Origin: Candidatus Binatia bacterium
GTDB lineage: Bacteria > Desulfobacterota > Binatia > UBA9968 > JAJDTQ01
Assembly (NCBI GenBank): GCA_963666515.2
Contig: OY762897.2
Coordinates: 1,408,001-1,472,000 of the forward strand
Reading direction: 5' to 3'
DNA: 64,000 bases
Positions 935 through 50,503 of this stretch are shown here, in pieces; the stretch's first letter is position 1, and every line of letters begins with the position of its first letter. A program made the position numbers and the translations under genes. The notes under the pieces were generated by a model. It did not search any database. It worked only from the letters and a program-made list of their open reading frames with translations, and was not told the origin of the DNA.

Positions 935-1225
935 TTACCTTGGTTCGAGCCACTGCTCGAAGATGTCCGCGTAGATCTTGTTGACGCCCTCGGGCGCGGG
1001 CCGGTCGTCCCACACGTGGGCCAGATCGAACTCGATGGAGTACAGGTTGGCCATGGGCAGGCCGTCCTTGCCGAAGGAAAGCAGTTCCGGGTCCTTGAAG
1101 CTGCCGCGGATGTCCGCCACCACGCCGTCCTTGCCCCTTAGATACTGGGGCGAGCGGATGTGGTGCCCCAGCGTCAACGTGTCCAGAACCCTGACCGGAT
1201 CGCCCGGCTTGTAGCGAAAGCTCAT
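935..1225 (-). CDS. SH3-like subunit (NHase beta C-terminal domain / thiocyanate hydrolase alpha-like)
   Basis: YKPGDPVRV...GHHIRSPQYLRGKDGVV...LYSIEF...ADIFEQWLEP pattern; directly upstream of the CTLCSC subunit. Confidence 0.85.
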   Translation of the reverse strand: MSFRYKPGDPVRVLDTLTLGHHIRSPQYLRGKDGVVADIRGSFKDPELLSFGKDGLPMANLYSIEFDLAHVWDDRPAPEGVNKIYADIFEQWLEPR

Positions 1226-1289
1226 GGGCGCCAGTCTCGACTTTCGGAGGTTGATTGTCAACTCCACGGCGCCGCGGCGGGTGGGTAAG

Positions 1290-3014
1290 TCAGGCTTTCG
1301 CCGTTCTACCGCTGAACCGGTCGAGCCAGGCGCCGCTCAGCAGCCAGGAATAGCCCCAGGTTCCGACGGCGATGAGCACGAACGCGGTCACGATGCCGGA
1401 TGTGCTCCCCTGGAGCGAGAAGCCCGGCACGTAGCCGAACAGGAAGGGCGCGAGGTAGAGGAACTTGGCGAACTTGAAGGCGCTGAACGCGGTCTTCCAC
1501 ATGTCGGCCTGGGCGATGGTGGCGCCGGTGAAGGCGGCGATGCATACCGGCGGGGTGATGTTCGAGTCCTGGGACAGCCAGTAGACGATCATGTGCGCCG
1601 CGATGGGGTTGGCGCCCAGCTCCGTCAGCGGCGGCACCGCCACGACTGCGGTGATCAGGTAGGCGGCGGTCACCGGCACGCCCATGCCGAGGATCAGGGA
1701 GGCCAAGGCGATGAGCAGGATGGTCAGCCACAGCCGGCCGTCGGCCAGCGCGATGACGATGTCGGCGAACGTGAGCACCAGGCCGCTGTAGGTCAGCACG
1801 CCGATGATGATGCCGATGACGCCCAGGGTGGCGCCGATCTTGAGGCTGTTCTCGGCCCCCGCGCGGGCCGCTTCCAGGAAGCGTTGCGGCCCGATCCTCG
1901 TGTCCGGGCGCAGCCAGCTCACCGCGATGCAGGTCGCCATGCCGAGTATGGCGGAATAGGCGGGCGAGTACCCCATCAGCATCAGCACGGTGATGACCGC
2001 GAGCGGCAGCACATAGTACCAGCCTCGCCCGAATATCTCTCCGGCGCAGGTCTCCGACTTCTCGCCCCGGATGCCGTGCTGCCTGGCCTCGTAGTGGACC
2101 ATGACGTAGACGCTGAAGAAGTACATGAGGGCCGGAAAGACGGCCACCAGCATGATGGCGGAGTAGGGCACGCCGGTAAGCTCCGACATGATGAAGCCGC
2201 CGGCGCCCATGATGGGAGGCATGAACATGCCGCCGATGGAGGCGGCGGGCTCGATGGCGCCGGCCACGTGCGGCTTGAAGCCGGCCTTCTTCATCATGGG
2301 GATGGTGAAGTTGCCGGTGGAGACGGTGTTGGCGATGGCGCTGCCGGAGATGGAGCCGAACAGGCCGCTGGCGATCACCGCCACCTTGGCCGGGCCGCCG
2401 ACCCGGTGGCCCACCGCGGCAAGCGGGAAGTCCACGAAGAACCGTTGCGCTCCGCTGGCTTCGAGGAAGGCGCCGAAGATGACGAACAGGATCACGTAGG
2501 TGGCCAGCACGTTAGCCATGATGCCGAAGACCCCGTCGCTCTTGTAGAAGATGCTGGTGCACAGGGCCGGGAAGGTATCCCCGGCATGGGAGATGAGGTC
2601 GGGCATGGAATCGCCGTAGACCCCGTAGAGCAGCATGACCCCGCCCAGGACGACGAAGACGTTCCCCACCACCCGGCGCGCCAGCTCCACGCCGATCAGC
2701 ACGCCCGCCACGGCGATCCATTGATCCAGGACGGTTTCGACGCCGACCCGGTAGTTGATGGCCTCGAAGTTCCACATCCAGTAGCCGATGCACACCACCG
2801 ACGCGGCCATCAGCAGATAGTCGGCCATCCGGCCCGGCCCGCTCCGGGAGCGGTAGAGGAGGAACACGAGCACATAGGTGATGACGACGTAGATGCCGCG
2901 ATGGTACTGGGTGGCCGCGGGAACGAGCACCGCGGAGTACGAATAGAACAGCACCAGGACGAGCGAGAGGACGTCGAACAGCCATCGCTCCGCGGTGTTC
3001 AGCTTTTCGAACAT
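1290..3014 (-). CDS. TRAP transporter fused (4TM/12TM) permease, TAXI type
   Basis: Polytopic membrane protein with GGPAKVAVIASGLFGSISGSAIAN, FMPPIMGAGGFIM and SNITPPVC motifs. Confidence 0.92.
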   Translation of the reverse strand: MFEKLNTAERWLFDVLSLVLVLFYSYSAVLVPAATQYHRGIYVVITYVLVFLLYRSRSGPGRMADYLLMAASVVCIGYWMWNFEAINYRVGVETVLDQWIAVAGVLIGVELARRVVGNVFVVLGGVMLLYGVYGDSMPDLISHAGDTFPALCTSIFYKSDGVFGIMANVLATYVILFVIFGAFLEASGAQRFFVDFPLAAVGHRVGGPAKVAVIASGLFGSISGSAIANTVSTGNFTIPMMKKAGFKPHVAGAIEPAASIGGMFMPPIMGAGGFIMSELTGVPYSAIMLVAVFPALMYFFSVYVMVHYEARQHGIRGEKSETCAGEIFGRGWYYVLPLAVITVLMLMGYSPAYSAILGMATCIAVSWLRPDTRIGPQRFLEAARAGAENSLKIGATLGVIGIIIGVLTYSGLVLTFADIVIALADGRLWLTILLIALASLILGMGVPVTAAYLITAVVAVPPLTELGANPIAAHMIVYWLSQDSNITPPVCIAAFTGATIAQADMWKTAFSAFKFAKFLYLAPFLFGYVPGFSLQGSTSGIVTAFVLIAVGTWGYSWLLSGAWLDRFSGRTAKA

Positions 3015-16437: not shown

Positions 16438-16674
16438 ATCTTTCCATATGTCCGATCATGCGCGCGTGGGGTCGTCCCTGTACTCTTGACAAACGCATGC
16501 GCTGACCGATTGGAACCAACCTCCTATCACGCCACGAACCCTGTTGGCCAGTCGTCAACCCGGTTGGCGGTGTCTGCGCAATGCGAGGAGTTCCCCTTCT
16601 GAGCAAGACAATTGGAATTTGCACCGTGCGTTTGGCCGTGCCATCCTTTCCGAAACTCCGGCTTCAGGGGTGTC

Positions 16675-17859
16675 ATGCTGGCGACCAATGAATTGTGTGC
16701 GTTGATCGAGGATCACGAGTCCGACCGCGTGGAACTTACGGTCTCCAAGACGAACACCGATAAGTTCGGCGAGGCGATTTGCGCCTTCGCCAACGACTTC
16801 CCCAATAACGCAAGGCCGGGCTACCTCATCATCGGCGTGGACGATCACGGGACAGTCAGTGCTGAGACCGTCAGCGACGAACTGCTACAGCATCTCGGAA
16901 ACCTGCGCTCGAACGTCAATATCGAGCCGCTGCCGGTCATGACCGTCCAGAAACACCTGTTGCCGGAAGGTGAGGTAGCGGTAGTGGAAGTCCTGCCGTC
17001 AGACCTGCCGCCGGTGCGGTACAAGGGTGTGGTCTGGATCCGTGTCGGTCCATCGCGGCGCCGCGCCAGCCAGCAGGAAGAACGGATTCTGATCGAAAAA
17101 CGGACCGCCCAGCAGCGGACCTTCGATCTCCGGCCGTGCGCGGGCTGCAAGATGGACGATCTCGTCCGGGACATGTTTCTCGTCACCTATCTGCCTGCCG
17201 CCGTGGACCGTGCAGTCATCGAGGAGAACAACCGCGCCATCGAAGAGCAGATGGCTTCGCTACGGTTTTACGATCTGACCGCGGACTGCCCCACGAACGC
17301 TGGAGCGCTCTTGTTCGCCCGGGACCCGTTACGCTGGGTGCCGGGGGCCTGGATCCAGTTCGTCCGTTGGGCGGGAACCACGATGGCAGACGACCCGATC
17401 AGCGAGAAACGGCTCAGTGGCGATCTGATTACGGTCCTGCGGGAACTGGAAGCATTGGTTTCTCTTCCAGCACAACCGCACCCGGTGGCGGAATCGGCTC
17501 TCCGGGAACGAACGGTGACCGACTATCCGCCCGCAGCCATCCGCGAACTGCTCTTGAACGCCATCATGCATCGATCCTACGAGTCAAACGCGCCGGTTCG
17601 CTTCTACTGGTACGATGACCGCATAGAGATCCAGAATCCGGGCGGTCTGTATGGCATGGCGTCACCGGAGAACTTCCCGCGGCAGACGGATTACCGAAAT
17701 CCGGTCCTGTCGGAGGCCCTGGCGACTCTTGGCTATGTCAACGCGTTCGGACGCGGCGTCATCCGTGCACAGGAAGCGTTGCGCCGCAACGGAAATCCGG
17801 AGGTGGAATTCACGTTCGAGCCTTCCCACGTGCTGGCGACCATCCGGAGGGCGGCGTGA
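16675..17859 (+). CDS. AlbA_2 (Schlafen-like) domain + RecG-C/HATPase-like domain protein
   Basis: ESDRVEL...AICAFAND...GYLIIGVDD N-terminus; YPPAAIRELLLNAIMHRSY, RIEIQNPGGL and RNPVL...G in the C-terminal part. Confidence 0.85.
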   Translation: MLATNELCALIEDHESDRVELTVSKTNTDKFGEAICAFANDFPNNARPGYLIIGVDDHGTVSAETVSDELLQHLGNLRSNVNIEPLPVMTVQKHLLPEGEVAVVEVLPSDLPPVRYKGVVWIRVGPSRRRASQQEERILIEKRTAQQRTFDLRPCAGCKMDDLVRDMFLVTYLPAAVDRAVIEENNRAIEEQMASLRFYDLTADCPTNAGALLFARDPLRWVPGAWIQFVRWAGTTMADDPISEKRLSGDLITVLRELEALVSLPAQPHPVAESALRERTVTDYPPAAIRELLLNAIMHRSYESNAPVRFYWYDDRIEIQNPGGLYGMASPENFPRQTDYRNPVLSEALATLGYVNAFGRGVIRAQEALRRNGNPEVEFTFEPSHVLATIRRAA

Positions 17860-18848
17860 AAACGATCGCTTTCTTCAACAACAAGGGCGGCGTGGGCAAG
17901 ACCACGCTGGTGTACCACTTGGCGTGGATGTACGCGGACCTCGGATTCTCGGTGGTGGCCGTGGACCTCGATCCACAAGCGACCCTCAGCACCGTATTCC
18001 TCAGGGAGGACCGCCTCGAGCAGTTGTGGCCCGACGGCGAACATCCCGACAGCATCCTGGGCGCGATTTCGCCCATCCTGCGAGGGCTTGGCGACATCCG
18101 GGAGCCGCATGTCGAACAGGTCGCTTCGAATCTCGGCCTCGTCGTCGGCGACTTGGCGCTGTCGAGTTTCGAGGCGAAGCTGTCGGCAGCGTGGCCGAGC
18201 TGTCTGAGCGGCGACGAGTCGGCGTTTCGCACAGAGTCGGCGTTCCATCGGATGATTTGCCACGCCGCCAACAAGCAGAATGCCGACTTGGCGTTGATCG
18301 ACGTCGGTCCGAACCTGGGTGCTATCAACCGGGCGGCGATCATTGCGGCGAGCTTCGTCGTGTTTCCGCTCGCCCCCGATCTTTTCTCCTTGCAGGCGCT
18401 CCGCAACGTCGGGCCGACGCTCCGGGATTGGCGCAACGACTGGCGGGACCGTCTGGAACGCCGTCCGAAGGTTTCCGATCTCGACCTTCCATCGGCCGAA
18501 ATCACCCCCGCTGGCTACATTGTGATGCAGCACGCCGTGAGCGCGGACCGTCCCGTGCAGGCGTACCAGAAGTGGATCAGGCGAATTCCAGAGGTGTACG
18601 GCAAGGAAGCGCTCAACGGTGCTGGCTGTGGCGTGTCCTCGACAGAGGACGATACCGAATGCCTGGCCACCCTGAAACACTATCGAAGCCTGATGGCCAT
18701 GGCTCACGAGGCCCGCAAGCCAATGTTCCGCCTCACCGCCGCAGACGGTGCGCTCGGCGGTCACTTCTACGCAGTGCGGGATTGTTACGAGGACTTCGAG
18801 AAGCTCGCGAAGGCGATAGCCGGCAAGTGTGATGTACGCGCCCGTTGA
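17856..18848 (+). CDS. Orphan ParA/Soj-family ATPase
   Basis: FNNKGGVGKTT deviant Walker A, DLDPQ, IDVGPNLGAINR; GTGA-coupled to the upstream gene. Confidence 0.88.
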   Translation: MKTIAFFNNKGGVGKTTLVYHLAWMYADLGFSVVAVDLDPQATLSTVFLREDRLEQLWPDGEHPDSILGAISPILRGLGDIREPHVEQVASNLGLVVGDLALSSFEAKLSAAWPSCLSGDESAFRTESAFHRMICHAANKQNADLALIDVGPNLGAINRAAIIAASFVVFPLAPDLFSLQALRNVGPTLRDWRNDWRDRLERRPKVSDLDLPSAEITPAGYIVMQHAVSADRPVQAYQKWIRRIPEVYGKEALNGAGCGVSSTEDDTECLATLKHYRSLMAMAHEARKPMFRLTAADGALGGHFYAVRDCYEDFEKLAKAIAGKCDVRAR

Positions 18849-27369: not shown

Positions 27370-29265
27370 ATGATCCGGGCAGACGAATTCAAGATATGGC
27401 TTGAGGAACGTGGCGCGAAGTCCTCTGGCGCACGGAGTTCACGTACTTCCGCACTTGGAAGGATCGAAAAGAAATTGGAAGAGCTTGGAATGCCCTTCCC
27501 GGATCTGGATACAGCCTGGAAAGAAGATCGTTTCGAGTCACTAATTGAACGCCTGCAGCGGATGCGGGAGGATGCAGGCCATGGCGGACAGGACTATCGG
27601 ATACTTATGCCGCAGTCCAAGGACCCCCTCAACCGGCTGTCAACCTGGAACGGCTACTTGAAGCGATATGGCCAGTTCCTCGAAGGTGAGTCACCAGGAC
27701 CAACCCAACAGCTTGAGCCAAAGGCCATGCCGATTGAGCCCATGAACCTCATCCTCCACGGACCGCCCGGCACCGGCAAGACGTTTCTCACAGCCGCGGA
27801 AGCCGTGAGCTTGTGCGGAGAACAAGTACCTGGGGATCGCGATGCACTGATGGAGACCTATCGCCACCTTGTCGCGATGGGACGCATCGAGTTCGTCACC
27901 TTCCACCAGTCGATGTCCTACGAGGATTTCGTGGAAGGCCGTCAGCCGATGACCGAGTCGGACGAAGACGGCGATACTTCTTCCGCTGGCTTCCGGTTGG
28001 AGACCGTTCCCGGCATCTTCCGTCGCATCGCGAAACCTGCCGAGACGAGCCGGGGCCGGTCGCCCGGAGACGAACAGATCGCCATCGTAGACCGGCAGGT
28101 ATTCAAGATGTCGATCGGCGTAGCGAACGACCCCGAAGACGCACATCTTTTCGAAGAAGCCATCGACGGCGGCTACGCGCTGCTCGGTTGGGGAGACATC
28201 GATTGGAGCGATGACAGGTACGCCGAACGGGAGGCTATCATCAAGGCTTGGGAGACAAAGGGCCGCAACGACCTCAACGCTCGGTCTGGGGAGGTCCAGA
28301 TGCCCTTTATCTTCCGCAACTGGGTGCGCAAGGGCGACCTCGTGATCGTGTCGAAGGGCAATTCACTGTTCAGGGCGATCGGTGAATTCACCAGTGATTA
28401 CGAATACCATCCCCGGGCAGAGGGTGGCTATGCCCATCGACGTGCCGTACGCTGGCACTGGATAGATCGCCAGGGCGTGCCCGTCAGCGAGATTTACAAG
28501 CGATACTTCTCGAGGAAGGCAATCCACATGCTTTACGAAACGGAGCTTAACATTCCTGCGCTGGAGCGTTACCTGCACAGCCAGCACGCGGAAGACCCGG
28601 CCGAGCCGGAACACTTCGTTTTGATCATCGACGAAATCAATCGCGCCAACATCTCGAAAGTCTTCGGAGAGCTGATCACGCTCCTCGAACCGGACAAGCG
28701 CCTTGGCCAGCCGAATGCGCTGAAGGTCCGCCTACCATACTCCGGCGATGAATTCGGGGTACCTTCGAACCTGCACATCCTGGGTACGATGAACACCGCG
28801 GACCGGTCGATCGCGCTGCTGGATACGGCCCTGCGCCGCCGTTTCACCTTCCGCGAAATGATGCCCGAACCATCCCTACTCGACGAGGCAGCCGAAAAAT
28901 CCGGGCTCGACCTGCCGCGAATCCTCGACTCTCTCAATGAACGGATCGAGTACTTCTATGACCGCGAACACCAGATAGGGCATGCCTATTTCATTGGTTG
29001 TGCATCAAAGGAGGAAGTGGACGCTGTCATGCGGCACAAGGTGATCCCGCTGCTGGCCGAATACTTCTTCGAGGATTGGGGGAAGATCGCGGCTGTGCTC
29101 GGCGATGCAGCCTCGCATGATGGGGTGATCATCGGCAGGTTCCTCAAGCGGTCGGTGCTCAAGGCGCCGCCTGGGCTCGAGGAGGGCGATGACCTGCCCC
29201 GTTTCCGTTGGGAGGTCCGCTCCGAAGAGGAAGGCTTCGATTACACGCGATTGACCGAAGGATGA
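27370..29265 (+). CDS. mcrB: McrB family GTPase/AAA subunit of a type IV restriction system
   Basis: GPPGTGKT, FVTFHQSMSYEDFVEG, IIDEINRAN, TMNTADRSIA, ALRRRF, IGHAYF. Confidence 0.9.
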   Translation: MIRADEFKIWLEERGAKSSGARSSRTSALGRIEKKLEELGMPFPDLDTAWKEDRFESLIERLQRMREDAGHGGQDYRILMPQSKDPLNRLSTWNGYLKRYGQFLEGESPGPTQQLEPKAMPIEPMNLILHGPPGTGKTFLTAAEAVSLCGEQVPGDRDALMETYRHLVAMGRIEFVTFHQSMSYEDFVEGRQPMTESDEDGDTSSAGFRLETVPGIFRRIAKPAETSRGRSPGDEQIAIVDRQVFKMSIGVANDPEDAHLFEEAIDGGYALLGWGDIDWSDDRYAEREAIIKAWETKGRNDLNARSGEVQMPFIFRNWVRKGDLVIVSKGNSLFRAIGEFTSDYEYHPRAEGGYAHRRAVRWHWIDRQGVPVSEIYKRYFSRKAIHMLYETELNIPALERYLHSQHAEDPAEPEHFVLIIDEINRANISKVFGELITLLEPDKRLGQPNALKVRLPYSGDEFGVPSNLHILGTMNTADRSIALLDTALRRRFTFREMMPEPSLLDEAAEKSGLDLPRILDSLNERIEYFYDREHQIGHAYFIGCASKEEVDAVMRHKVIPLLAEYFFEDWGKIAAVLGDAASHDGVIIGRFLKRSVLKAPPGLEEGDDLPRFRWEVRSEEEGFDYTRLTEG

Positions 29266-30569
29266 TCCGTCGTACCATCCGCGAATGGGAGCGTATCGGC
29301 TACGGCACGGACGACACTGAGATCCCGGCGTCGCATGCAGATCAAATCGCCGCAGAGGCACGGGCATCGACCTCCTCCGGGCGCGGCGGCGAAGGGGTGT
29401 TGGAACACGGTCGCAAAGGACTACGCGCCCGTGGCGTGGTGGGAGTGATCGCTACGCACGCCTGCCAGCTTGAAATTTTGCCGAAGATTGAGGGTGTGGG
29501 CGAAAGCGACGTGGACCCCGCCACGCTACGCCACCGGCTGATCCACATGCTGGCCGTGGCGCGGGACATCCGGATCGATTTTGGGGCGATTACGCAACTG
29601 GGCTGGCAGCGCGACACGATCCTGGAACTATTGATCCGGCTCTTCTGCGGCAAGCTCGCCGACGCCGTGCGCCACGGCATACCGCAGCAGTACAACGACC
29701 AGGAAGATGACCTCCCCATGCTGCGCGGGCGTCTGAATGTGACGCGGCAATTCTCGACCCTTGCGGTTTCGCCGCAGATGCTGGCGTGCCGGTTCGACGC
29801 GCGCTCGCCCGACATTGCACTCAATCAGGTCATGCGGGCGGCCATCGGCAAATTGTCCCGTCTCGCACGGGCTCCAGACAATCAACGCGCTCTGCGCGAG
29901 TTGAACTTCGTATACGCGGACATCTCGGAGGTCCCCGCGGCAGCCTTGCGTTGGGACCTTATCGTACTCGACCGGACGAACACACGATGGCGAGAGCTTT
30001 TGTCGCTGGCGCGCCTATTTCTGCGTGATCACCACCAGCGGACAAGCGCCGGCCCTATTGACGGCTACGCGCTGCTGTTTGAGATGAACATTCTCTTTGA
30101 GGAATACGTGGGGCGACTGCTCGCCCGCGCGCTCGCGGGCACCGACTTTAGAGTTGTAGCGCAAGGCGGTCACCTCGACTGCCTTTTCGAGGGAGAGACC
30201 GGACGGTTCCGTACACGTCCCGACCTGATCGTCCGGCGAGGCGGCCAGATCGCTCTCATCATCGACACGAAGTGGAAACGCATCACGCGGGCCGACGATC
30301 CCAAACGGGGCGTGAGCCAAGCCGATGTCTACCAGATGATGGCCTACGGCAGGCTATACGACTGCCCACGTGTCATGCTTCTCTATCCGCATCACGGCGA
30401 TTTGCCGCCTGATACAATCCATCAGCGGTATTCCATTGGAGTGCCTGACGCACAGGAGAGCCTATTCGTGGCAACCCTCGACGTCACTGGACCGCACAGG
30501 AGCCACGAAATCGCCCTGAAACACCTGACATGCGCCGTTACCCGAACAGCTTTCGATGAGACGACATAG
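29262..30569 (+). CDS. mcrC: McrC family nuclease subunit
   Basis: LEILPKI, LFEMNILFEEYV, RPDLIV...IIDTKWK...ADVYQMMAYG; ATGA-coupled to mcrB. Confidence 0.9.
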   Translation: MIRRTIREWERIGYGTDDTEIPASHADQIAAEARASTSSGRGGEGVLEHGRKGLRARGVVGVIATHACQLEILPKIEGVGESDVDPATLRHRLIHMLAVARDIRIDFGAITQLGWQRDTILELLIRLFCGKLADAVRHGIPQQYNDQEDDLPMLRGRLNVTRQFSTLAVSPQMLACRFDARSPDIALNQVMRAAIGKLSRLARAPDNQRALRELNFVYADISEVPAAALRWDLIVLDRTNTRWRELLSLARLFLRDHHQRTSAGPIDGYALLFEMNILFEEYVGRLLARALAGTDFRVVAQGGHLDCLFEGETGRFRTRPDLIVRRGGQIALIIDTKWKRITRADDPKRGVSQADVYQMMAYGRLYDCPRVMLLYPHHGDLPPDTIHQRYSIGVPDAQESLFVATLDVTGPHRSHEIALKHLTCAVTRTAFDETT

Positions 30570-41318: not shown

Positions 41319-43352
41319 TCACCTTAGTTTTTGGCGCTTCCCGCCAAAGGAGCCCTGCAAGTGATTTTCGTCTACAATCTGTTCGAAAATCCCCGCCACC
41401 TCCTCTGCATTTGGTCCGTAAAAGTCTCCGTCAATATACCCCACTCTCAAGTCCATATTCGGGTTTGGCTTGTGATTTCCTTGTAGGAAAAACGACCCGT
41501 CGCTGTTCTGCCTCAGATTCTCCCAACTAAGTACTCTCCTCCCCGTATACGGGGTGGTGATCCCTGGCAAACCTGGAAGATCGTCCGCGACGGTCAAGGT
41601 CACGTCCAATGTATCGTCAGCGAAGTGGTATTTCACTTCCGACGTGCCGCCCAAACTACCACTTTTGTCGTACTCACCAACACGGCTCCACCACCCGAAC
41701 ATCCCACCACGCCATGTGGCGACAGCTTCGTTGCCAAGAGGTCTCGGAAAGTCTTCATACAACTGGCCGAACGCAAAACTGTGTGTCGAGTGGCCACTGA
41801 GAAGAGTCTCGTCAGGAATCAACATCATACCCCAAGCGCCGTACTCTCCCCAGTTGCCTACAGCGTTGAAACCATTGAACAGATCTTGCTCATCCGGCGT
41901 CAGGGGTTGTCCGCTGGCGAGTTTGTCAAGGGCCGAGGTCATCTTCGGCAAATCTGGACCAAACACAAAGTATCCATTCGAATCCGGTTGGTCCGACTGC
42001 TTAACTATTTTACCTTCCAATTCTTCCAGAACATATCCTGCGCTTACGGTTTGACGGCTTCCACCTCGACGATTGTCAATTGTACAAAGCCTACCTCTAC
42101 TGCCCACGCCGGGACAAATCACCTCGTCGCGTAACAATTCTTGAGGGCGGTTTATGTAATAATAGGTTACGTCACTCAGTTCAAAATGGTCTGCACTGAA
42201 GTGGGGCAAGCCAGCAGGAAGATCAGGGTAAGACGTCGTTTGGACCCGTGGCGGCAACTTGACAACAGATCCGTTTATCGTTTCCGTAGGTGCAGCCCAG
42301 TACGTTAAATTGTACTCCGGATAAACCGTGTTATCAAGGAGAAATAGGCGGTTTACGGCACAGCCACCCGCGTCTGAACACGTATAGACGCGCCGCGTTC
42401 CATCTGCTGCCTGTACTACCTTCTCTTCTCCCATTCTCAAGAAAAAGCCGCTTTCGTCGTCGGTCACATGTATTCTATCATTCGAATACCATTCCCAGGA
42501 ATTCGGCCCCGTAGCTCGCAAATTTTCGAACTCACATTGGCTATCTTGGGCGCACGTAACGAATTGTTTACGGGAACTTCCAAGCAACATCACAGGGATT
42601 TGTTCCCACGGATCCAAGTGGCCAGTGAGGAGTCCGCTAGCGCCTTCCAGGTATAGCGGTCGGCCGCTATCTTGATCGAGCTCGATGCTGAACAGACCCG
42701 CTTGGTCCTTGGTGACGGATATTATACGACAACCTGGACCACCAGAGGGACACAGTAAAAAGGTACCTTGTGACAATCTTCCACCAGTACCGGCGTTCAG
42801 AGTAAAGGGGATACTCCCGCTCGTCTCTGCAGTAAGCATTCCCCCGGAATATCGGGCCTCCCCTCCAGCCCCATCTACCGTCACCACACATGCGGCCTCG
42901 CCCGCACATGTAAACCGAACGCCGTCACGCTCCAACGTCTCACCAGGCTCCACTTGAAAACTTTCACTGCCGGTAAAAGTGTGCCCCGCCGGTAAACTAA
43001 CGGGTGTCCCTTGCGAGGGCGGCGGAACAGCGGCCACGTTGAGCATTCCGCCTGTATATCGCGCCTCTCCTCCAGCCGCGTCTACCGCCACCACACATGC
43101 GACCTCGCCTGCACACGTAAACCGAACGCCGCCACGCTCCAACGTCTCACCAGGCTCCACTTGAAAACTTTCACCACCGATAAGAGTGTGCCCCGCCGGC
43201 AATGCAACGGTTGTCCCTTGCGACGACGGGGGAACTGTTGTTCGCTGCCCGGCGCTACTGCATGCCACACCGACAAGCGTCATCATCAACGCGATATACC
43301 GGATCGAACCCATGTGACCTAGAAACGGCCATCTTCTATGACCTCTACTCAT
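41319..43352 (-). CDS. Surface lipoprotein with 69-aa tandem repeat and TbpB-like C-terminal beta-barrel
   Basis: Lipobox-like GVAC; C-terminus IDGDFYGPNAEEVAGIF...LQGSFGGKR; lower GC than the flanks. Confidence 0.7.
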   Translation of the reverse strand: MSRGHRRWPFLGHMGSIRYIALMMTLVGVACSSAGQRTTVPPSSQGTTVALPAGHTLIGGESFQVEPGETLERGGVRFTCAGEVACVVAVDAAGGEARYTGGMLNVAAVPPPSQGTPVSLPAGHTFTGSESFQVEPGETLERDGVRFTCAGEAACVVTVDGAGGEARYSGGMLTAETSGSIPFTLNAGTGGRLSQGTFLLCPSGGPGCRIISVTKDQAGLFSIELDQDSGRPLYLEGASGLLTGHLDPWEQIPVMLLGSSRKQFVTCAQDSQCEFENLRATGPNSWEWYSNDRIHVTDDESGFFLRMGEEKVVQAADGTRRVYTCSDAGGCAVNRLFLLDNTVYPEYNLTYWAAPTETINGSVVKLPPRVQTTSYPDLPAGLPHFSADHFELSDVTYYYINRPQELLRDEVICPGVGSRGRLCTIDNRRGGSRQTVSAGYVLEELEGKIVKQSDQPDSNGYFVFGPDLPKMTSALDKLASGQPLTPDEQDLFNGFNAVGNWGEYGAWGMMLIPDETLLSGHSTHSFAFGQLYEDFPRPLGNEAVATWRGGMFGWWSRVGEYDKSGSLGGTSEVKYHFADDTLDVTLTVADDLPGLPGITTPYTGRRVLSWENLRQNSDGSFFLQGNHKPNPNMDLRVGYIDGDFYGPNAEEVAGIFEQIVDENHLQGSFGGKRQKLR
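42835..43248. repeat. Two diverged direct repeats of 207 bp within the lipoprotein gene
   Basis: TCCCTTGCGA at 43007 and 43214, AGCATTCC at 42835 and 43042 (offset 207); duplicated LPAGHT...ESFQVEPGETLER.GVRFTCAGE unit. Confidence 0.9.
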
Positions 43353-43700: not shown

Positions 43701-44732
43701 TTATTCGCGTTTAGCTCCGAATGAGCCGACGATCCTGACACCACGCTCGCCATGGCCGGCGGTGAAGGGGTCGGCGTCGAATTTGAAATAGGTGCCTGCC
43801 ACTTCCTGCCAGTCAGGGCCGTAGAAGCGTCCCTCGACGTTCCATCCGCCGATCTCAAAAACGTTGCCGAACATGCCGTGAGACTGAAGCTCTTGGACTT
43901 CTAAGCCGCGCCAGCGGACGCCAGTCGCGAGTTCCGGGATGGTTCCTTCGAAGTTTCTTAGAGCGATGTCTAGGGTCATGCTGCTGTCGAGGTCGTCCTC
44001 GTAGGTCGCGGTTATCATGGCGTCTCCCTGGGCAAATCCGGTTGCTCCTATGGCAAGGCGTCCAGGATCTTCGGTCCGGGCGACTTCTATGCGCCTTGCG
44101 GATGTAAAGCCCCTGTAAGTGGCTGTTCTGAATGGTGGATTGCCGACAGGCGGGATGCCGTGTACGTGCGCTTGAGCGTAACGGACGAAGTGATCACCCT
44201 CGACGAAGCCGTTGCTGAAAGTGGCAAAATAGTGCCAATCTCCCCAGGCGCCGTAGATGTGGCCGACGTGGATGTTGGCGTCGCTGAAGCCTCTGCCACT
44301 GAAATCTCCGGTCATTCCATTGCCCCCCGGGACTCGGAGGCTTGCTTGGGACACGTCGAAACTGGCGGGGCTTCCATAAAGACCAACAAGGGATTCGAAC
44401 CTCTGGGAGTCCTGTCTGCATGACTGGCTTCCTGCAGACTCGCAGGCTGCTTGTATATTAATTCGAGATCCGAAATCGTCTCCTTCTTCTGCTTTGGCGA
44501 TGATCGCTGCGATGGCTGTGTTCGCCTGTGATGAGCTTGTGACGTAGCCGGGCCCTCTCTGCGCCGTCGGCTCCTCCTGACCCGTGTTCTTGCCTGACTG
44601 CTGGTCTTCACCTGGCGTTGGCGGAAGAATCTCTTCTTGGAAGGAAGTGCCGCTGCAACCGGTAAGGACGAGCAAGGCAACAAGCGAAGAGGCTATTGAG
44701 GTCTTCTTCACAACATACATAGCGAGCTTCAT
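43701..44732 (-). CDS. Surface lipoprotein with TbpB-like C-terminal beta-barrel
   Basis: LTGC lipobox, low-complexity linker, VEGRFYGPDWQEVAG...VGSFGAKRE; GAGGAG RBS before ATG 44732. Confidence 0.72.
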   Translation of the reverse strand: MKLAMYVVKKTSIASSLVALLVLTGCSGTSFQEEILPPTPGEDQQSGKNTGQEEPTAQRGPGYVTSSSQANTAIAAIIAKAEEGDDFGSRINIQAACESAGSQSCRQDSQRFESLVGLYGSPASFDVSQASLRVPGGNGMTGDFSGRGFSDANIHVGHIYGAWGDWHYFATFSNGFVEGDHFVRYAQAHVHGIPPVGNPPFRTATYRGFTSARRIEVARTEDPGRLAIGATGFAQGDAMITATYEDDLDSSMTLDIALRNFEGTIPELATGVRWRGLEVQELQSHGMFGNVFEIGGWNVEGRFYGPDWQEVAGTYFKFDADPFTAGHGERGVRIVGSFGAKRE

Positions 44733-44844
44733 AACAATCTCTCCTCTCAGGGTTGATTGGCTGTAGCGGGCAACGGTAAACCCTATAATTGCAAAACCCG
44801 CACCCTTAGTTGCTCCCGTCATTCGGTGAGAGTCCGTTGGTACG

Positions 44845-45333
44845 CTACTCCAGCACCTGCCACAACTTTCCGTCCTTCGACGCAACCTTCAGACACCTGA
44901 GCAAAATCAGCTTCGTTTCTGCCGCCGTCTTTTTCGCGCCTTCACTCATGGAACCGACCAATCCGGTGACGAGCCCCACGCCGGCGCCAATGCCGGCTGC
45001 TTCCCCGATCTTGACGCCGCCGACACCCGCCATGTCGAAGATCTGTGCCATCTCGGTGGCCATCGCGGCCCCTTGCACCGTGGATTGGGCCGTATCTGTA
45101 AGGGTCGCCAATTGTGCTTCCTGCGCGGCCGTCATTTGACGGTTGTTGGCGACGTTCCGACAAATCCCGAGCACCTGCTTGTATTTTTCCTCTTGTCCCG
45201 GCTCGACGTAGACCGACGGTATGTACTGTCCGGCTCCAAGCCCGCTGGAGTCGACGGCTCCCTTGTAGGCCGATCCACAACCAGCGAGAAAGAACAGCCA
45301 CAGAACCGCAGATACCTTGCCTATGTTTCGCAT
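44845..45333 (-). CDS. Glycine-zipper lipoprotein
   Basis: LAGC lipobox, AAGIGAGVGLVTGLVG zipper, two further Cys; GAGGAGG RBS. Confidence 0.7.
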   Translation of the reverse strand: MRNIGKVSAVLWLFFLAGCGSAYKGAVDSSGLGAGQYIPSVYVEPGQEEKYKQVLGICRNVANNRQMTAAQEAQLATLTDTAQSTVQGAAMATEMAQIFDMAGVGGVKIGEAAGIGAGVGLVTGLVGSMSEGAKKTAAETKLILLRCLKVASKDGKLWQVLE

Positions 45334-46264: not shown

Positions 46265-46521
46265 GGCAGGACCTCTCCGTTCTTGGCCCGCAAAAGCGAT
46301 TCGTCGAACTGAGAACCTGTTACCAGAGCTTCAACGGCACTAGCTATGCCATAACTCGGCAATGAGAGGCATTTAATGACACTCAAAGAGGAGAACTGTA
46401 TGAATGATGCGTTCGACGGGCACGACTGAACCTGCATGGCACCATTGATCCCCACTTCATCGACGCGCGGCTACCGGATGGTCCGCCAAACAGCGGCCCC
46501 GTCGGCGCTTGTGACGCTCGC

Positions 46522-46689
46522 TCATTCGGTATCGTCCTCGGAAGCTTCACTTGAGCGCTGGTTGAGCTGATCGAGTTCCGCCATCGACTCGAGAATTCGG
46601 AACGCGGCCTCTTCGAAAATGTCGCAATACCGGTTCTCTTTCCACTCTGGTCCATCGGGAGTGACATCCAAGAAGACGTTCCAACCCTT
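46522..46689 (-). pseudogene. 3' part of an XRE-HTH gene interrupted by the IS1595 element
   Basis: Removing the element and one TSD restores ...EWKGW-NVFLDVTPDGPEW...DDTE-stop in frame. Confidence 0.75.
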
Positions 46690-46744
46690 GGGAATTATAT
46701 ACTAGTTTACCCAAGGTGGTGGACTAGAGACGGGGGGTATGCCG

Positions 46745-46990
46745 ATGAGAATACGTTGGTGGCAAATGGGTTTGCATGTTGACGCAGAGTCCGAGGAGGA
46801 ACACGAGTCACTGGTACAGATATGGAGAGCCCTGAAAGGGTTGAACAACTTAGGATTCGTCGTTGATGATAAGGGTTGGTCTATCCGAACCGTACCAATC
46901 GGAGTTGTCGAGGCAGACGACAAGGAGGTCGTCGTTACTGTCGATGAAGCGGTTGAAGTGAAGGAAAAGCCTCTTGGCGGTGGTTCCTGA
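46745..46990 (+). CDS. Small hypothetical protein (module A), paralogue of 49635-49886
   Basis: MRIRWWQMGLHVDAESEEEHESL vs MRVYWHYKYGLVLGPENEEEREHL; both preceded by GGGGGGTA-N5-ATG. Confidence 0.55.
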   Translation: MRIRWWQMGLHVDAESEEEHESLVQIWRALKGLNNLGFVVDDKGWSIRTVPIGVVEADDKEVVVTVDEAVEVKEKPLGGGS

Positions 46991-47110
46991 TACGTTGATG
47001 AGCCATTGAGAATCCAGCACTTTCAGAGGGCGATAAACGGTTAGTGCCTTTCTTAGTTTAGGGTAGTCCTGTTCAGGATAGTTGAGGTCGTAGTTAATGA
47101 GGTATCTCAT
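46850..47110 (-). CDS. Cas2/VapD-like ferredoxin-fold small protein (module A)
   Basis: MRYLINYDL N-terminal strand with Asp, LDSQWLI, IDSNDDLLVV. Confidence 0.65.
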   Translation of the reverse strand: MRYLINYDLNYPEQDYPKLRKALTVYRPLKVLDSQWLINVSGTTAKRLFLHFNRFIDSNDDLLVVCLDNSDWYGSDRPTLIINDES

Positions 47111-47188
47111 GGTTGGCGTGTATTGCACGGGGTATGGCGTCTGTCAAGAGGGTTTTGGACGGGTCGGTTTTGCTGTGGAGAAAGGGGG

Positions 47189-47218
47189 TTGACAGGGTAG
47201 TTGGGGGTTTAGTAGGGT
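47189..47218 (+). promoter_or_regulatory. Putative promoter of structured RNA 1
   Basis: TTGACA (47189-47194), 18-bp spacer, TAGGGT; predicted start falls near the first base of the closing stem. Confidence 0.45.
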
Positions 47219-47224
47219 GCGAGG

Positions 47225-47358
47225 TTGCCAACGTCTTTCGGGAATCCGCTAAGTCGGGTTACCCGCTGAATAAAACAGCCTCTAGCCCGGCTCGGACTAG
47301 CTACCTGAGCCTAGGTAAATAGGTGGGGACTTCCCTCATTCCTGAGAGATGTTGGCAA
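47225..47358 (+). ncRNA. Putative structured ncRNA 1 (about 134 nt)
   Basis: 21-bp closing stem (47225-47245 / 47338-47358) in which all three non-Watson-Crick pairs are G-U; nested inner stems; followed by hairpin CCGACACC/GGTGTCGG (47363-47383). Confidence 0.6.
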
Positions 47359-47412
47359 TGGCCCGACACCAACGGGGTGTCGGCGAAATGCCTTATGAGG
47401 GAGGTACGGGGT

Positions 47413-47811
47413 ATGGCCAGATGGTTCAAGAAACTGAAGAAAGAATGGGAGACGGACTTTGAGAAGAACAATCCGCGTCAAGCCGCGACAGTGAGATGGT
47501 TGAACTCGGAACGGGCGCAAGCTGGGGTGCTTGGTTTTTTCCTTATGCCGTTGTTGTGCACTTTTTCTTGGGTGTGCTTGGTAGGTTTTCTCTGGCTGGT
47601 CGTGCTTTTGCTCAGAGGTGCGGCGAGTGGAGGAATGTCGATTCTTGAGGCGTACATATGGTATGAACTGATATTTGCTTCGATGGGCATTGCTGTTTTG
47701 GTGGGGTTGGTCCACGGATTAGCGAAATGGTTCAAGGCAACAAGGAGGCGAGCGGTTCGGGAAGAGGAGGAAATCCGTCTTGCCGTGCGACAACAGAGAA
47801 TGAATGAGTGA
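47413..47811 (+). CDS. Hypothetical membrane protein (transposon passenger)
   Basis: Two to three hydrophobic segments; GGAGGT RBS before ATG 47413. Confidence 0.55.
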   Translation: MARWFKKLKKEWETDFEKNNPRQAATVRWLNSERAQAGVLGFFLMPLLCTFSWVCLVGFLWLVVLLLRGAASGGMSILEAYIWYELIFASMGIAVLVGLVHGLAKWFKATRRRAVREEEEIRLAVRQQRMNE

Positions 47812-47895
47812 TTGGCCAAGTCTTGATGCGTATCATTGCTGAGGTCTGTACGGTTGTAGAGTGGCGGAACGGGGTTCCGTGTGGGAGTGAAGGCG

Positions 47896-48252
47896 ATGAA
47901 AACATACAAGATATTGGTAGGTTCGTCGGGTCGGGTTGAAGCGGTAAAACAGGGGTGGTCATGGCCAGCATTCTTCTTCAACATGTTTTGGTTGCCGGTC
48001 AAGAAGTTGTGGGGATGGAGGGCGGTTTTCTGGGGCGCTTGGGCTGCGATGGCGGTGACGACCACTTTTCTTGGCGTTCAGGGTGTTGAAGGGGCGGTGA
48101 ATATAGTGGTTGGCATTGTTCTTGGTCAGGTGGGAAATCAGATGAGGGAGAAGAACCTTGTATCGAGGGGGTTTGAGGTTCGTGATACGGTTCAGGCCGG
48201 GAATGTTGAAGCGGCTTTGGCTGCGTGGGAGAAGGGTGGTTCTGTTAGTTAG
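47896..48252 (+). CDS. DUF2628-like membrane protein (transposon passenger)
   Basis: EAVKQGWSWPAFFF...W...KKLW and GN...L.SRGF motifs. Confidence 0.75.
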   Translation: MKTYKILVGSSGRVEAVKQGWSWPAFFFNMFWLPVKKLWGWRAVFWGAWAAMAVTTTFLGVQGVEGAVNIVVGIVLGQVGNQMREKNLVSRGFEVRDTVQAGNVEAALAAWEKGGSVS

Positions 48253-48280
48253 GTTATATGTTGGGGGCTTGGAGTAGGGC

Positions 48281-48511
48281 GAGTTGTTTCAGTTTCGGGC
48301 ACCCTGTGCCGCTAGTCTATGCGGACGAGAAAGCAAAACGCCTTCTTTCCGTACCAACTAGCGAAAATCCTCGTCCCATTTTTCAATGTGATCGAGGATG
48401 TAAATTTCCACCGGTAGCCCGGTGGGGGTTCTGGGTAGGTCATGAGGCTACCCTCCTTTCTGGCGACGGTGCGCCCCTGAAAGGTGAGGGTGCCCGAAAC
48501 TGAAGCAATTC
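48281..48511 (+). ncRNA. Putative structured ncRNA 2 (about 231 nt, multi-branch)
   Basis: 25-bp closing stem (48281-48305 / 48487-48511, two G-U pairs) enclosing five consecutive hairpins. Confidence 0.65.
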
Positions 48512-48590
48512 ATACTTACTATGTAAGAGTCTGCATATGTCGGTCAGAATTTCAAGATGCCTTAATGGGCTATTTTCGTAATGGGTTCGT

Positions 48591-48619
48591 TTGACATTCA
48601 TCCAGCTTTGGGGTAAACT
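48591..48619 (+). promoter_or_regulatory. Transposase promoter overlapping a TIR-like motif
   Basis: TTGACA-17 bp-TAAACT, then AGGAGG RBS; GGGTAAACTA is identical to the TIR core. Confidence 0.7.
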
Positions 48620-48646
48620 ACTTCCATAATTAGGAGGTAGGGAAAG

Positions 48647-49615
48647 ATGTCACAGAAGGCACCGGGCAAGGCATTTAGGCAGGGGCTGTCGATCAAGGCG
48701 TTGTTCAAGATGTTTCCTGATGACGAGACGGCGGAGAAGTGGTTTACTGAGGTCAGGTGGCCGGAAGGGGTTCGGTGTCCTAAGTGTGAGTCCGACAACA
48801 TCCAGGAGCGGGCTACGCGGAAGCCTCAGCCGTATCGTTGCCGGTCTTGCCGGAAGGACTTTTCAGTCAAAACGGATACCCTGATGCACAACTCGCCGTT
48901 GGGTTATCAGACGTGGGCGGTGGCGATTTATCTCATGACCACGGGATTGAAGGGGGTGTCGTCAATGAAGTTGCACCGGGATTTGGATGTGACGCAAAAG
49001 ACGGCGTGGCACTTGGCGATGAGAATCCGGGAGACCTTCGAGGACAAGGGGGTTGCGTTTGCTGGGCCGGTAGAGGTTGACGAGACGTATGTGGGTGGCA
49101 AGGAGAAGAACAAGCACGCGGACAAGAAGTTGAAGGCGGGGCGTGGGGCGGTGGGCAAGGCGGCGGTGGTGGGGATGAAGGACCGGGAGACTAACCGGGT
49201 GACGGCGGAGGCGGTTGAAAGCGTGGACGGGTTGACTTTGAAGGAATTCGTGCTGGACCAAGTGGTGGATGGTGCGAAGGTTTACACGGACGAGAACCGG
49301 GGGTATCAGGGGCTTCCGAACCACGAGACGGTGAATCACTCGGTCAAGGAGTACGTGGACGGGATGGCGCATACCAACGGGATTGAGTCCTTTTGGGCGG
49401 CATTGAAGCGGGGTTATCACGGTGTGTACCACAAGATGAGTGCGGAGCATCTGGACCGCTATGTTGGGGAGTTTGCGGGGCGACACAACATCAGGGACGA
49501 GGACACGGTAGTTCAGATGGCCGCTGTTGTACGAGGAATGGTCGGCAAGCGGTTGAGGTATAGGAATCTGGTTGCTTCACCGGAGAAGAAGATGCCGGGG
49601 AATGATGTCTTTTGA
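48647..49615 (+). CDS. IS1595 family transposase
   Basis: Zn ribbon CPKC...CRSC, HTH (SSMKLHRDLDVTQKTAW), VEVDETY, VYTDE, HTNGIESFW. Confidence 0.95.
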   Translation: MSQKAPGKAFRQGLSIKALFKMFPDDETAEKWFTEVRWPEGVRCPKCESDNIQERATRKPQPYRCRSCRKDFSVKTDTLMHNSPLGYQTWAVAIYLMTTGLKGVSSMKLHRDLDVTQKTAWHLAMRIRETFEDKGVAFAGPVEVDETYVGGKEKNKHADKKLKAGRGAVGKAAVVGMKDRETNRVTAEAVESVDGLTLKEFVLDQVVDGAKVYTDENRGYQGLPNHETVNHSVKEYVDGMAHTNGIESFWAALKRGYHGVYHKMSAEHLDRYVGEFAGRHNIRDEDTVVQMAAVVRGMVGKRLRYRNLVASPEKKMPGNDVF

Positions 49616-49634
49616 GAAGGGGGGGGGTAGCCCT

Positions 49635-49886
49635 ATGCGTGTTTATTGGCATTATAAGTACGGCTTGGTATTGGGTCCAGAAAATGAAGAAGAGAGGGAG
49701 CATCTTAAAGTAGTGCAAAAGGTGTTTGAGATACCTAAAGAGGGTGAACCCGAATACGTGGGGGTAGAGAGGAGAGCGAGAGAGCACCGTTACGCGATGT
49801 ATCAGAAGCGTCAGAGGGATGAGTCAGCGGGGAAGGTCCCTGACATAGGGGGCGTCGCGGATGAGGGTGGGGGGGTGCATGACTGA
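49635..49886 (+). CDS. Small hypothetical protein (module B), paralogue of 46745-46990
   Basis: Shared N-terminal W..GL....E.EEE.E.L motif. Confidence 0.55.
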   Translation: MRVYWHYKYGLVLGPENEEEREHLKVVQKVFEIPKEGEPEYVGVERRAREHRYAMYQKRQRDESAGKVPDIGGVADEGGGVHD

Positions 49887-50117
49887 TGCGTCGTCTATGG
49901 AGGTGATGATTAGTTCGATACACATTCCGTCGTCTAGGTCGAGTTTGGCAAGAATGGATCTAAGGATGGCCTTGGCTTCTTTGTCGCTTTTCACGGTCCT
50001 TTGAGACTGGAGTATGGCTTTGGCGTTGTAGTCGATCTCTACAACGGCTTTGTCGATACTGAGATAGATGGCGGTGTCGTCTATGTGAGCATCATAACTG
50101 ACAAGGTAGAGTTCCAT
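49824..50117 (-). CDS. Cas2/VapD-like small protein (module B)
   Basis: MELYLVSYD N-terminus, ILQSQ, LDLDD; GGAG RBS; similar to 46850-47110. Confidence 0.55.
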   Translation of the reverse strand: MELYLVSYDAHIDDTAIYLSIDKAVVEIDYNAKAILQSQRTVKSDKEAKAILRSILAKLDLDDGMCIELIITSIDDASVMHPPTLIRDAPYVRDLPR

Positions 50118-50259
50118 GACATGTTCTCCCTTCAGTGCGGGGATGGGCGTTTCCGTAGCACGGGGATGGGATTAGGGTCAAGGACTGGGACTGTGCGGCG
50201 GTTGATGGGTTGGTAGCCGCTGAGGAGAAGCCTGTGGTACAGGCAGGAAGCGATGTGTT

Positions 50260-50469
50260 TTGATGGCAAAGGATGGACGGGTCACAGCTGGGTCTATGGA
50301 TGGGAAAAGCGATGGTGTGAAGAAAAGCAAGCGGGGTCGTCCGGGGAGCCCGAAGTATCAGGAGTCCATCCGCATTGACGCCAATCCGGAAGCCGTTGCT
50401 AGGGCCATCATGAAGGGGCCACCAAAGCCGGATGGAGAGTGGCGCTATCTCAAGAACAAGGTTTGCTGA
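50260..50469 (+). CDS. Small basic protein at the right end of the IS1595 element
   Basis: KRGRP...IRIDANPEAVARAIMKGPPKP...WRYL; ends 9 nt before the right TIR. Confidence 0.55.
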   Translation: MMAKDGRVTAGSMDGKSDGVKKSKRGRPGSPKYQESIRIDANPEAVARAIMKGPPKPDGEWRYLKNKVC

Positions 50470-50503
50470 TAGGCAAGGTTGGGTAAACTAGTATATAATT
50501 CCC

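Follow-up and report, generated by a model that had tools for sequence, protein, structure and literature searches.

RNA1, a structured RNA in a Candidatus Binatia genome, belongs to a large family of proposed leaders with an sRNA-Xcc1-like core

A 64,000-nucleotide (nt) stretch of a Candidatus Binatia bacterium genome (assembly GCA_963666515.2, contig OY762897.2, positions 1,408,001 to 1,472,000 of the forward strand; hereafter the window, numbered from its first letter) carries a strand-specific RNA structure at 47224-47367 (+), here named RNA1, with a 20-bp 5'-terminal stem and a promoter-like site upstream. It belongs to an extensive family of structured, putative leaders of about 145 nt that is absent from the annotation. 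Judged from sequence comparison, there is about an even chance that RNA1 is a cis-acting, switch-like leader, one of a horizontally spread family located before genes for exported proteins, and that it is a long variant of the fold of sRNA-Xcc1, a small RNA (sRNA) of Xanthomonas campestris filed in Rfam as RF02221.

Results

A strand-specific RNA closed by a long stem

Folding of 47189-47400 yielded -91.2 kcal/mol for the + strand (z -3.4; 1 of 200 shuffles was equally good) and only -68.3 kcal/mol (z -1.8) for the - strand. A first interpretation of this DNA, made from its letters alone (the sequence-only reading), had proposed a structured + strand RNA closely preceded by a promoter, and both folding and comparison supported such an RNA behind a promoter-like site. 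The promoter-like site, at 47189-47215 (+), consists of a -35 hexamer TTGACA (47189-47194), a 15-nt spacer and a poor -10 hexamer TAGTAG (47210-47215); read from this site, transcription is predicted to start at about 47222-47224 (+). The 5' strand of the closing stem P1 (47224-47243 (+), GUUGCCAACGUCUUUCGGGA) lies at the extreme 5' end of the predicted transcript. In the minimum-free-energy (MFE) structure of 47223-47400 it pairs with the 3' strand (47340-47359 (+), UCCUGAGAGAUGUUGGCAAU) over 20 bp including 4 G-U pairs, so that the closing stem described earlier is present but differs in detail from the 21 bp with 3 G-U pairs given for it.

Inside P1, element B (47253-47261 (+), GUCGGGUUA) forms the 5' strand of a long-range helix, B:C, and is followed by a conserved arm, P3-P4-P5 (47262-47327 (+), window coordinates checked). 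In the window, P3 pairs CCCGCU with GGUGGG (47262-47267 with 47322-47327 (+)), the internal loop GAAUAAAACA (47268-47277 (+)) faces AAAUA (47317-47321), P4 pairs GCC with GGU (47278-47280 with 47314-47316 (+)), and P5 pairs GGCUCGG with CCUGAGC (47289-47295 with 47305-47311 (+)) around a loop (47296-47304 (+)) containing the palindrome UAGCUA (47298-47303). A pyrimidine-rich linker (47328-47339 (+), GACUUCCCUCAU), represented by R-H-Y-Y-Y-Y in columns 165-170 of the 108-sequence family alignment described below, leads from P3 to the 3' strand of P1. Element C (47359-47367 (+), UGGCCCGAC) is the 9-bp complement of B and also the 5' half of the next hairpin, C:D, in which 47363-47370 (+) pairs with 47376-47383 (+) (CCGACACC / GGUGUCGG). 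The downstream hairpin of the sequence-only reading is this one; no U-run follows it, and a terminator scan called no terminator-like site there on the + strand. The inner stems GGGTTA/TAGCCC and GCTG...CAGC proposed in the same reading do appear in the single-sequence MFE structure, but they compete with the P3, P4 and P5 pairings that covary in 108 relatives. Rfam 15 searched at gathering thresholds returned only tRNA over the whole window, and at E <= 10 a single chance snoRNA match was obtained over 46500-49000.

A multicopy family found in many bacterial groups

A blastn search with the inner part of RNA1 produced matches in five genomes of the same genus (G002, G026, G005, G007 and G017). 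Alignment with these relatives indicated a conserved core, closing stems that vary in sequence yet pair, TTGAC upstream and GGAGG downstream. A pattern derived from the core, in which GUCGGG and both GAAUA motifs are fixed, was then searched against a collection with one genome per species, and the matches listed contained at least 116 loci in named genomes, all of them metagenome-assembled genomes (MAGs). The labels of the listed matches cover about 12 phylum-level groups and include Alpha- and Gammaproteobacteria, Latescibacterota, Gemmatimonadota/Longimicrobiales, Acidobacteria/Terriglobia/Bryobacterales, Chloroflexi/Dehalococcoidia, Binatia, Spirochaetia, Rhodothermales, Nitrospirales, Limisphaerales and 'Syntrophobacterales'. 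Going by names alone, some of the matches, such as Poriferihabitaceae and Palauibacter poriticola, may come from hosts among the marine invertebrates. The core pattern had 0 matches in 2.9 million viral contigs, and blastn of one family member against a plasmid collection returned no match.

The family alignment (n = 108) combined the window copy and three relatives with the 104 of 118 pattern instances that possessed a CCCGRC-like anchor, and a covariance model, R1, was built from it. With filters off, R1 identified a single match in the window, 47223-47367 (106.4 bits, E 1.4e-21), the runner-up scoring 12 bits; the whole genome contained 6 copies at 78-106 bits. Among 60 relatives, R1 matches occurred in 21 of 27 genomes of the same genus (1-19 copies per genome). 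A sister family had them in 3 of 5 genomes, and another family of the same order in 0 of 28. Over 100 sources it gave 103 matches at 59-125 bits.

Some individual copies deserve mention. Three of the 19 copies in one genome of the same genus (G020) have an identical score of 92.1 bits, which suggests recent duplication. Behind a leader on the - strand of locus L025, the 3' strand of P1 together with element C (…CTGCGGATTGGTCACAACGGCCCGGCACC) occurs in two tandem copies, which would be a natural duplication of the 3' half of the switch. In an alphaproteobacterial MAG (L057), the leader and its gene are located between tRNA and tRNA-Sec genes (1214-1301 (-) and 2090-2180 (-)).

Covariation of P1, of the core arm and of B:C

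The real arms of P1 paired better than shuffled ones in 104 of 104 instances, with a median of 18.5 bp and -29.7 kcal/mol. Their best gapless segments contained 1271 Watson-Crick, 109 G-U, 30 A-C and 12 other pairs, and the excess of G-U over A-C indicates that the constraint acts on the RNA of the + strand. This asymmetry bears on the possibility that the element works as DNA, as a recombination site like integron attC, a mobile-element end or a palindrome bound by a protein. The long inverted repeats, the palindromic P5 loop, the variable downstream genes and the reported integron-borne location of sRNA-Xcc1 would fit such a role. Against it stand the G-U excess on the RNA1 strand, the conserved geometry of the promoter and of the Shine-Dalgarno (SD) site, the lack of an integrase among the window genes and the scattering of copies on both strands rather than in arrays, and we consider a DNA-level element very unlikely. 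At the base of their hairpins, attC sites carry the core sites RYYYAAC and GTTRRRY, and they lie in cassette arrays with an integrase nearby. An attC site in particular was rejected, the P1 arms GUUGCCAAC and GUUGGCAAU fitting neither core, with no integrase in the window and the copies dispersed on both strands.

P3 (family consensus CCYGCY with RGCRGG) was 97% paired over the 108 sequences; one of its pairs was CG 54, UA 39 and UG 12 times, and another CG 90, UA 12 and GC 3 times. It closes a near-invariant asymmetric internal loop, GAAUAnAAnA opposite GAAUA, in which both GAAUA motifs are fixed by the search pattern, and inward of this loop follow P4 (GCC with GGY), a variable junction and the P5 hairpin. 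For the nested structure, the model-fitted alignment, which is biased towards the model, was 91.4% paired against 83.1% in shuffles, with both-sided changes in 16 of 26 pairs and a score matched by 0 of 500 shuffles. The P5 loop is UAGCU in 52 of 103 instances; elsewhere it is UAGCUA, GGCC, UCAUGA, UAAUUA, UUGCAA, GAUC, CGCG or UCGCGA. A self-complementary stretch of at least 4 nt was found in 85 of the 103 loops and in none of the other 18, nine of which are UCGCU. That the letters change and self-complementarity is kept is the pattern expected of a kissing dimer, and offers a lead in that direction.

Element B (GUCGGGNNN, just inside P1) complements element C (NNNCCCGRC, just outside P1) in a covarying 9-bp helix that was 97.2% paired over 108 sequences; its score was reached by 0 of 500 shuffles, and sliding the partner out of register reduced pairing to at most 51%. 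The GUCGGG of B is set by the search pattern, and the covariation rests on the three bases that follow it and on those preceding CCCGRC. The third of these variable pairs was GC in 46 sequences, AU in 27, UA in 7, GU in 4 and something else in 20. Other partners for B fared less well: a local hairpin, P2 (NNCCCG...CGGGNN), was only 60.7% paired, no better than shuffles, and was rejected, and an internal ACCCGG stretch, with which B is paired in the window MFE structure, has partner columns that are only 54-65% C in the family. Element C pairs with downstream sequence, as C:D, in 81 of 103 instances.

Conserved promoter geometry and a predicted start at P1

The other five copies in this genome are preceded by TTGACA, TTGACT or TTGCCA, a spacing of 17-18 nt and a TAGTCT-like hexamer whose last base lies 6-9 nt ahead of P1. 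In the family as a whole, a promoter score of at least 9 of 12 was reached at 28 of 94 sites, against 0 of 94 when shuffled, and the -10 hexamer ended 5-7 nt before the first paired base of P1 at 70 of 94 sites. Given this conserved distance, the transcript most likely starts at the first base of P1. A conserved, covarying structured domain thus appears to lie between a promoter-like site and an open reading frame (ORF), as looked for in a riboswitch, the position being read from the sequence.

The same arrangement could belong to a portable module for constitutive expression, in which a promoter and a 5' stem shielding the mRNA from 5'-end-dependent decay spread with their cargo and sense nothing. 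Such a module would account for a start at the first base of P1, for copies residing in mobile regions (the low-G+C island of the window and a 25-kb island described below) and for listed matches spanning so many phylum-level groups. A plain stem, in contrast, needs no near-invariant internal loop, covarying arm, palindromic loop or B:C helix, and we regard this explanation as unlikely.

Genes behind the proposed leader

RNA1 is followed by a gene at 47413-47811 (+), which is preceded by GAGGGAGG and encodes a 132-aa predicted membrane protein without a Pfam family. The second gene of the likely transcript, at 47896-48252 (+), encodes a DUF2628 protein (E 6.9e-10). Homologues of these two proteins were found in none of 132 other loci of the family. 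Soon after C, mostly 25-65 nt away, an ORF preceded by an SD-like site begins in 89 of the 103 members, and for this reason we read the 47413 gene as served by RNA1. The sequence-only reading had set an unstructured 5' untranslated region of this gene against its own proposal; the element most likely is indeed its leader, yet it is conserved and far from unstructured.

A hydrophobic, signal-peptide-like N-terminus was detected in 64 of the 89 downstream ORFs, 27 of these with a lipobox, and in only 19 of 158 other ORFs (>= 100 aa) of the same loci; these figures come from a crude heuristic applied to uncurated ORF starts. Because copies precede many different exported-protein genes, these genes might constitute one co-regulated set. 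A Pfam family was assigned to 22 of the 89 downstream ORFs, and 67 were without one. The assigned families were CsgG-like (3), SNase (2), collagen repeats (2), zinc ribbon (2), ankyrin repeats, OMP barrel, thermolysin M4, leishmanolysin M8, dienelactone hydrolase, TbpB_B_D, DUF7424, DUF898, DUF932, GT25, T5orf172, SH3_3 and DMP19 (below its cut-off). The window itself encodes two predicted lipoproteins with a C-terminal TbpB_B_D beta-barrel (41319-43352 (-) and 43701-44885 (-)), and the protein encoded behind the leader in G005 (L004, 1662-2564) carries this domain too.

P1 and B:C as probable alternative folds

P1 and B:C are crossing helices: for a P1 pair (i, j) and a B:C pair (k, l), the order is i<k<j<l. 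The median linkers are short, with 6 nt from the 5' strand of P1 to B, 1 nt from P1 to C and 9 nt from P3 to the 3' strand of P1. Since such linkers would have to be fully stretched around an 18-bp P1, the geometry argues that P1 and B:C are mutually exclusive states. In state I, P1 and the C:D hairpin would form and the 5' end would be buried; in state II, B:C would close the core as in sRNA-Xcc1, leaving the 5' 20 nt and D free. The family accordingly offers two alternative pairings, P1 versus B:C and C:D versus B:C. Blocking the 5' strand of P1 in the window changed the MFE from -88.1 to -60.0 kcal/mol. A correlation between linker length and P1 length came out negative; it reflects the fixed total length and was set aside as uninformative.

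A core shared with sRNA-Xcc1

When 18 family loci were scanned at E <= 1, two matches to RF02221 were obtained; they scored 33.7 and 32.2 bits, below the gathering threshold of 53. Both span model positions 1-87 and begin exactly at GUCGGG; at E <= 10, RF02221 had no match in the window copy or in the whole genome. In the cmscan alignment, the 9-bp closing helix of sRNA-Xcc1 (GgCcGGggG/CccCCgGcC) corresponds to B:C, its next helix to P3, its loop AAUACAAuA/GAAu to GAAUAnAAnA/GAAUA and its 3-bp CCC/GGG helix to P4, and both have ACC behind the closing helix. Two parts differ. The small P4 loop of sRNA-Xcc1 is replaced in the RNA1 family by an insertion of about 30 nt with the P5 arm and its palindromic loop, and the second hairpin is replaced by the 3' strand of the 18-20-bp P1. 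Because the partner of this strand is a 5' extension, P1 crosses the closing helix. A U-run tail is present in sRNA-Xcc1, whereas a T-rich tract follows C:D in only 13 of 103 members of the RNA1 family and is lacking in 90. The gene behind sRNA-Xcc1 is symE, whereas the RNA1 family precedes varied exported proteins, with a SymE match at E <= 1e-3 in 0 of 89; and in contrast to the integron context of sRNA-Xcc1, no integron integrase was found among the window ORFs. Common to both are multiple copies per genome, a same-strand gene downstream and a location in horizontally moving DNA.

The RNA1 family is placed outside RF02221 because it scores below the membership threshold, has neither the second hairpin nor symE nor the integron context, and mostly shows no U-tail. 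With a core fold that is shared, we file it as a new long variant and not as an RF02221 member.

Excerpts of the published work give the following picture of sRNA-Xcc1. In X. campestris it is an 88-nt sRNA with mapped ends and a Northern signal at about 100 nt (PMC2996969). In the most widespread Xanthomonas integron cassette it lies upstream of symE, in the same orientation and directed away from Pc (bioRxiv 10.1101/2025.06.18.660453), and it has been cited as an ORF-less cassette product (bioRxiv 10.1101/427781). Xylella has seven copies, detected as transcripts, five of them clustered in an island (PMC12189769), and the structure was revised with R-scape in Rfam 15 (PMC11701678). No long 5'-leader form is described in the excerpts of the literature on sRNA-Xcc1 and RF02221, and titles and abstracts on candidate riboswitches, signal peptides and sponge symbionts contain no account of the RNA1 motif.

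These precedents invite a different explanation, to which we assign a lesser but appreciable probability: RNA1 would be a free-standing, trans-acting sRNA like sRNA-Xcc1, with its own promoter and an end formed or processed at C:D, and the gene behind it would be a mere neighbour or be reached by read-through. The core aligns along the full sRNA-Xcc1 model, sRNA-Xcc1 is itself a mapped sRNA that also lies upstream of a same-orientation gene, its Xylella copies are detected as transcripts, and the conservation of B and C among copies would allow pairing in trans. The frequent lack of a U-run behind the hairpin, the tight distance to an SD-like site and ORF in most members and the downstream bias for exported proteins, which is hard to explain for a mere neighbour, favour instead a leader acting in cis.

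The divergent Cas2-like gene and RNA2

The sequence-only reading had also pointed to a Cas2-like gene divergent from RNA1, and to a larger putative RNA, here RNA2, as a possible homologue, proposing that RNA1 might be an RNA antitoxin or substrate of the Cas2-like protein. The divergent ORF (46850-47128 (-)) does have a weak match to the Cas2 Pfam family (E 1.3e-3), whose 19.3 bits fall short of the cut-off of 23.8. No conserved linkage was observed: tblastn of both Cas2-like ORFs of the window against the 132 other loci (including 102 further R1 matches) gave nothing at E <= 0.01, so that none of them has a Cas2-like homologue beside the leader. In the five closest relatives the upstream genes differ, none being Cas2-like, and the downstream genes differ too.

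Homology between the two RNAs did not hold either. CCGCTA and ACTAGC each occur once in each RNA, but the overall similarity is at chance (best local alignment 16, against 15.9 +/- 2.2 for shuffles, 256 of 500 of which scored at least as high) and the structural roles differ, ACUAGC being part of the palindromic P5 loop in RNA1 and paired with CGCUAGU in RNA2. With filters off, R1 found nothing at E <= 10 overlapping RNA2 (48281-48511 (+)). A weak likeness was seen in about 30 nt around the two predicted starts, in G-rich sequence (26 against 17.5 +/- 2.9, with 15 of 1000 shuffles at least as high; other island segments scored at best 20). The gene order at this one locus, the weak Pfam match and this modest likeness are what speaks for a role as antitoxin or substrate of the Cas2-like protein; comparison largely refutes it, and we find it scarcely credible.

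RNA2 is an element separate from RNA1. It folds to -132.4 kcal/mol (z -8.2), a 25-bp stem closing an interior of five branches, and is situated between the DUF2628 gene and a promoter-like site (48591-48619) of an IS1595 transposase gene. It has no Rfam match, and blastn in the genome and 60 relatives returned only itself and short matches of 22-33 nt. The two Cas2-like ORFs of the window, 46850-47128 (-) and 49824-50117 (-), both start with M-x-Y-L-I/V-x-Y-D and share 26% identity (E 0.16). An 83-aa ORF at 46739-46990 (+) overlaps the first of them, and either frame may be real.

Genomic surroundings

G+C is about 52% in the region around RNA1 (46.5-50.5 kb) and 63% over the window. The region also shows a very strong GC skew of +0.17 to +0.39, the + strand being G-rich; 46500-50500 is compositionally foreign DNA. 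Many small ORFs are found in it, and IS1595 and IS4-like transposases adjoin the window copy of RNA1. In this genome, in G013 and in G002, genes for IS1595-family (ISXO2-like) transposases recur no more than a few kb from family members (window 48647-49615 (+); L134, 34-1053; L137, 1404-2384; L002, 2792-3127). In G013 (L136/L137, G013:C1:1008000-1046000), four leader copies are scattered on both strands over 25 kb, in an island with genes for a TrwC relaxase, an MmeI-type restriction-modification enzyme, three transposases, a trypsin-like peptidase and a tyrosine integrase with an Arm DNA-binding domain. Elsewhere in the window are possible defence genes, namely an McrBC restriction pair (AAA_5 and McrBC; 27370-30569 (+)) and a Schlafen/AlbA_2 protein with a ParA-like ATPase (16612-18848 (+)).

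Discussion

If RNA1 is a switch-like leader acting in cis, the region from about 47224 to 47383 would be the structured 5' leader of an mRNA for the 47413 gene and the DUF2628 gene. A signal, which could be a small ligand, a protein or a processing event, would shift the balance between P1 and B:C, and the shifted balance would set the stability or the translation of the mRNA.

Several points weigh against this proposal. The start, the 3' end and the co-transcription of RNA1 with the ORF are all read from sequence. Of the promoter claimed in the sequence-only reading, the TTGACA at 47189-47194 stands, but a consensus promoter scan made no call at 47189-47215, owing to its poor -10 hexamer (TAGTAG, 15 nt behind the -35); what argues for a promoter is its position alone, conserved across the family. 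The conservation of some letters is partly built in, GUCGGG and GAAUA having been fixed by the pattern and 104 of 118 instances kept by the CCCGRC filter. No ORF was called in 14 of 103 members, and the 132-aa protein of the window itself fails the signal-peptide heuristic (-0.23 in its first 40 residues), its hydrophobic segments coming later. P1, with its median of -29.7 kcal/mol, should dominate the 9-bp B:C. As P1 is far more stable, state II would need a ligand, a partner factor or processing in order to form; otherwise B:C may pair in trans, between molecules. As for an expression platform, neither fold revealed a terminator or SD sequestration. The title of a 2011 article by Chen et al. 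(RNA Biol 8:947) calls sRNA-Xcc1 trans-acting. The excerpted record of this nearest known relative is that of a discrete mapped sRNA of 88 nt (PMC2996969).

A broader proposal, which we advance tentatively and hold to be clearly less probable than the leader reading itself, is that these RNAs are regulatory leaders of a new, horizontally spread class, perhaps riboswitches or RNA switches that self-dimerise, which would convey a shared signal to exported and surface proteins in about 12 phylum-level groups. In this proposal sRNA-Xcc1 would be the minimal form, P5 would form kissing-loop dimers, and the exchange between P1 and B:C would be the switch. If true, one signal would govern lipoproteins, nucleases, peptidases, and ankyrin- and collagen-like proteins. 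The RNA1 family would add to the known repertoire a well-supported structured RNA class that is undetected by Rfam 15 and has six copies here and up to 19 in a relative, and the poorly understood sRNA-Xcc1 would join a much wider fold. The cargo is of the kind usually discussed as host-interaction factors, and a shared leader would make its common regulation directly testable. Two exclusive, independently supported pairings and a palindromic loop are, in addition, open to mutational testing.

Among known regulatory leaders, two comparisons are instructive. Riboswitches of the c-di-GMP-I (GEMM) class occur in many copies per genome before diverse genes for surface and secreted proteins, and have a covarying core found across phyla. 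The RNA1 family resembles them in being multicopy, in preceding exported-protein genes and in having a core that covaries across phyla, but it has no sequence or Rfam match to them, its closing stem is far longer than those of known aptamers and no expression platform is evident. The ompA leader is a 5'-terminal stabilising stem-loop on the mRNA for an envelope protein, and the stem of RNA1 likewise begins at the predicted first transcribed base. Unlike the ompA leader, however, the RNA1 stem encloses a large conserved core and would compete with a second covarying helix.

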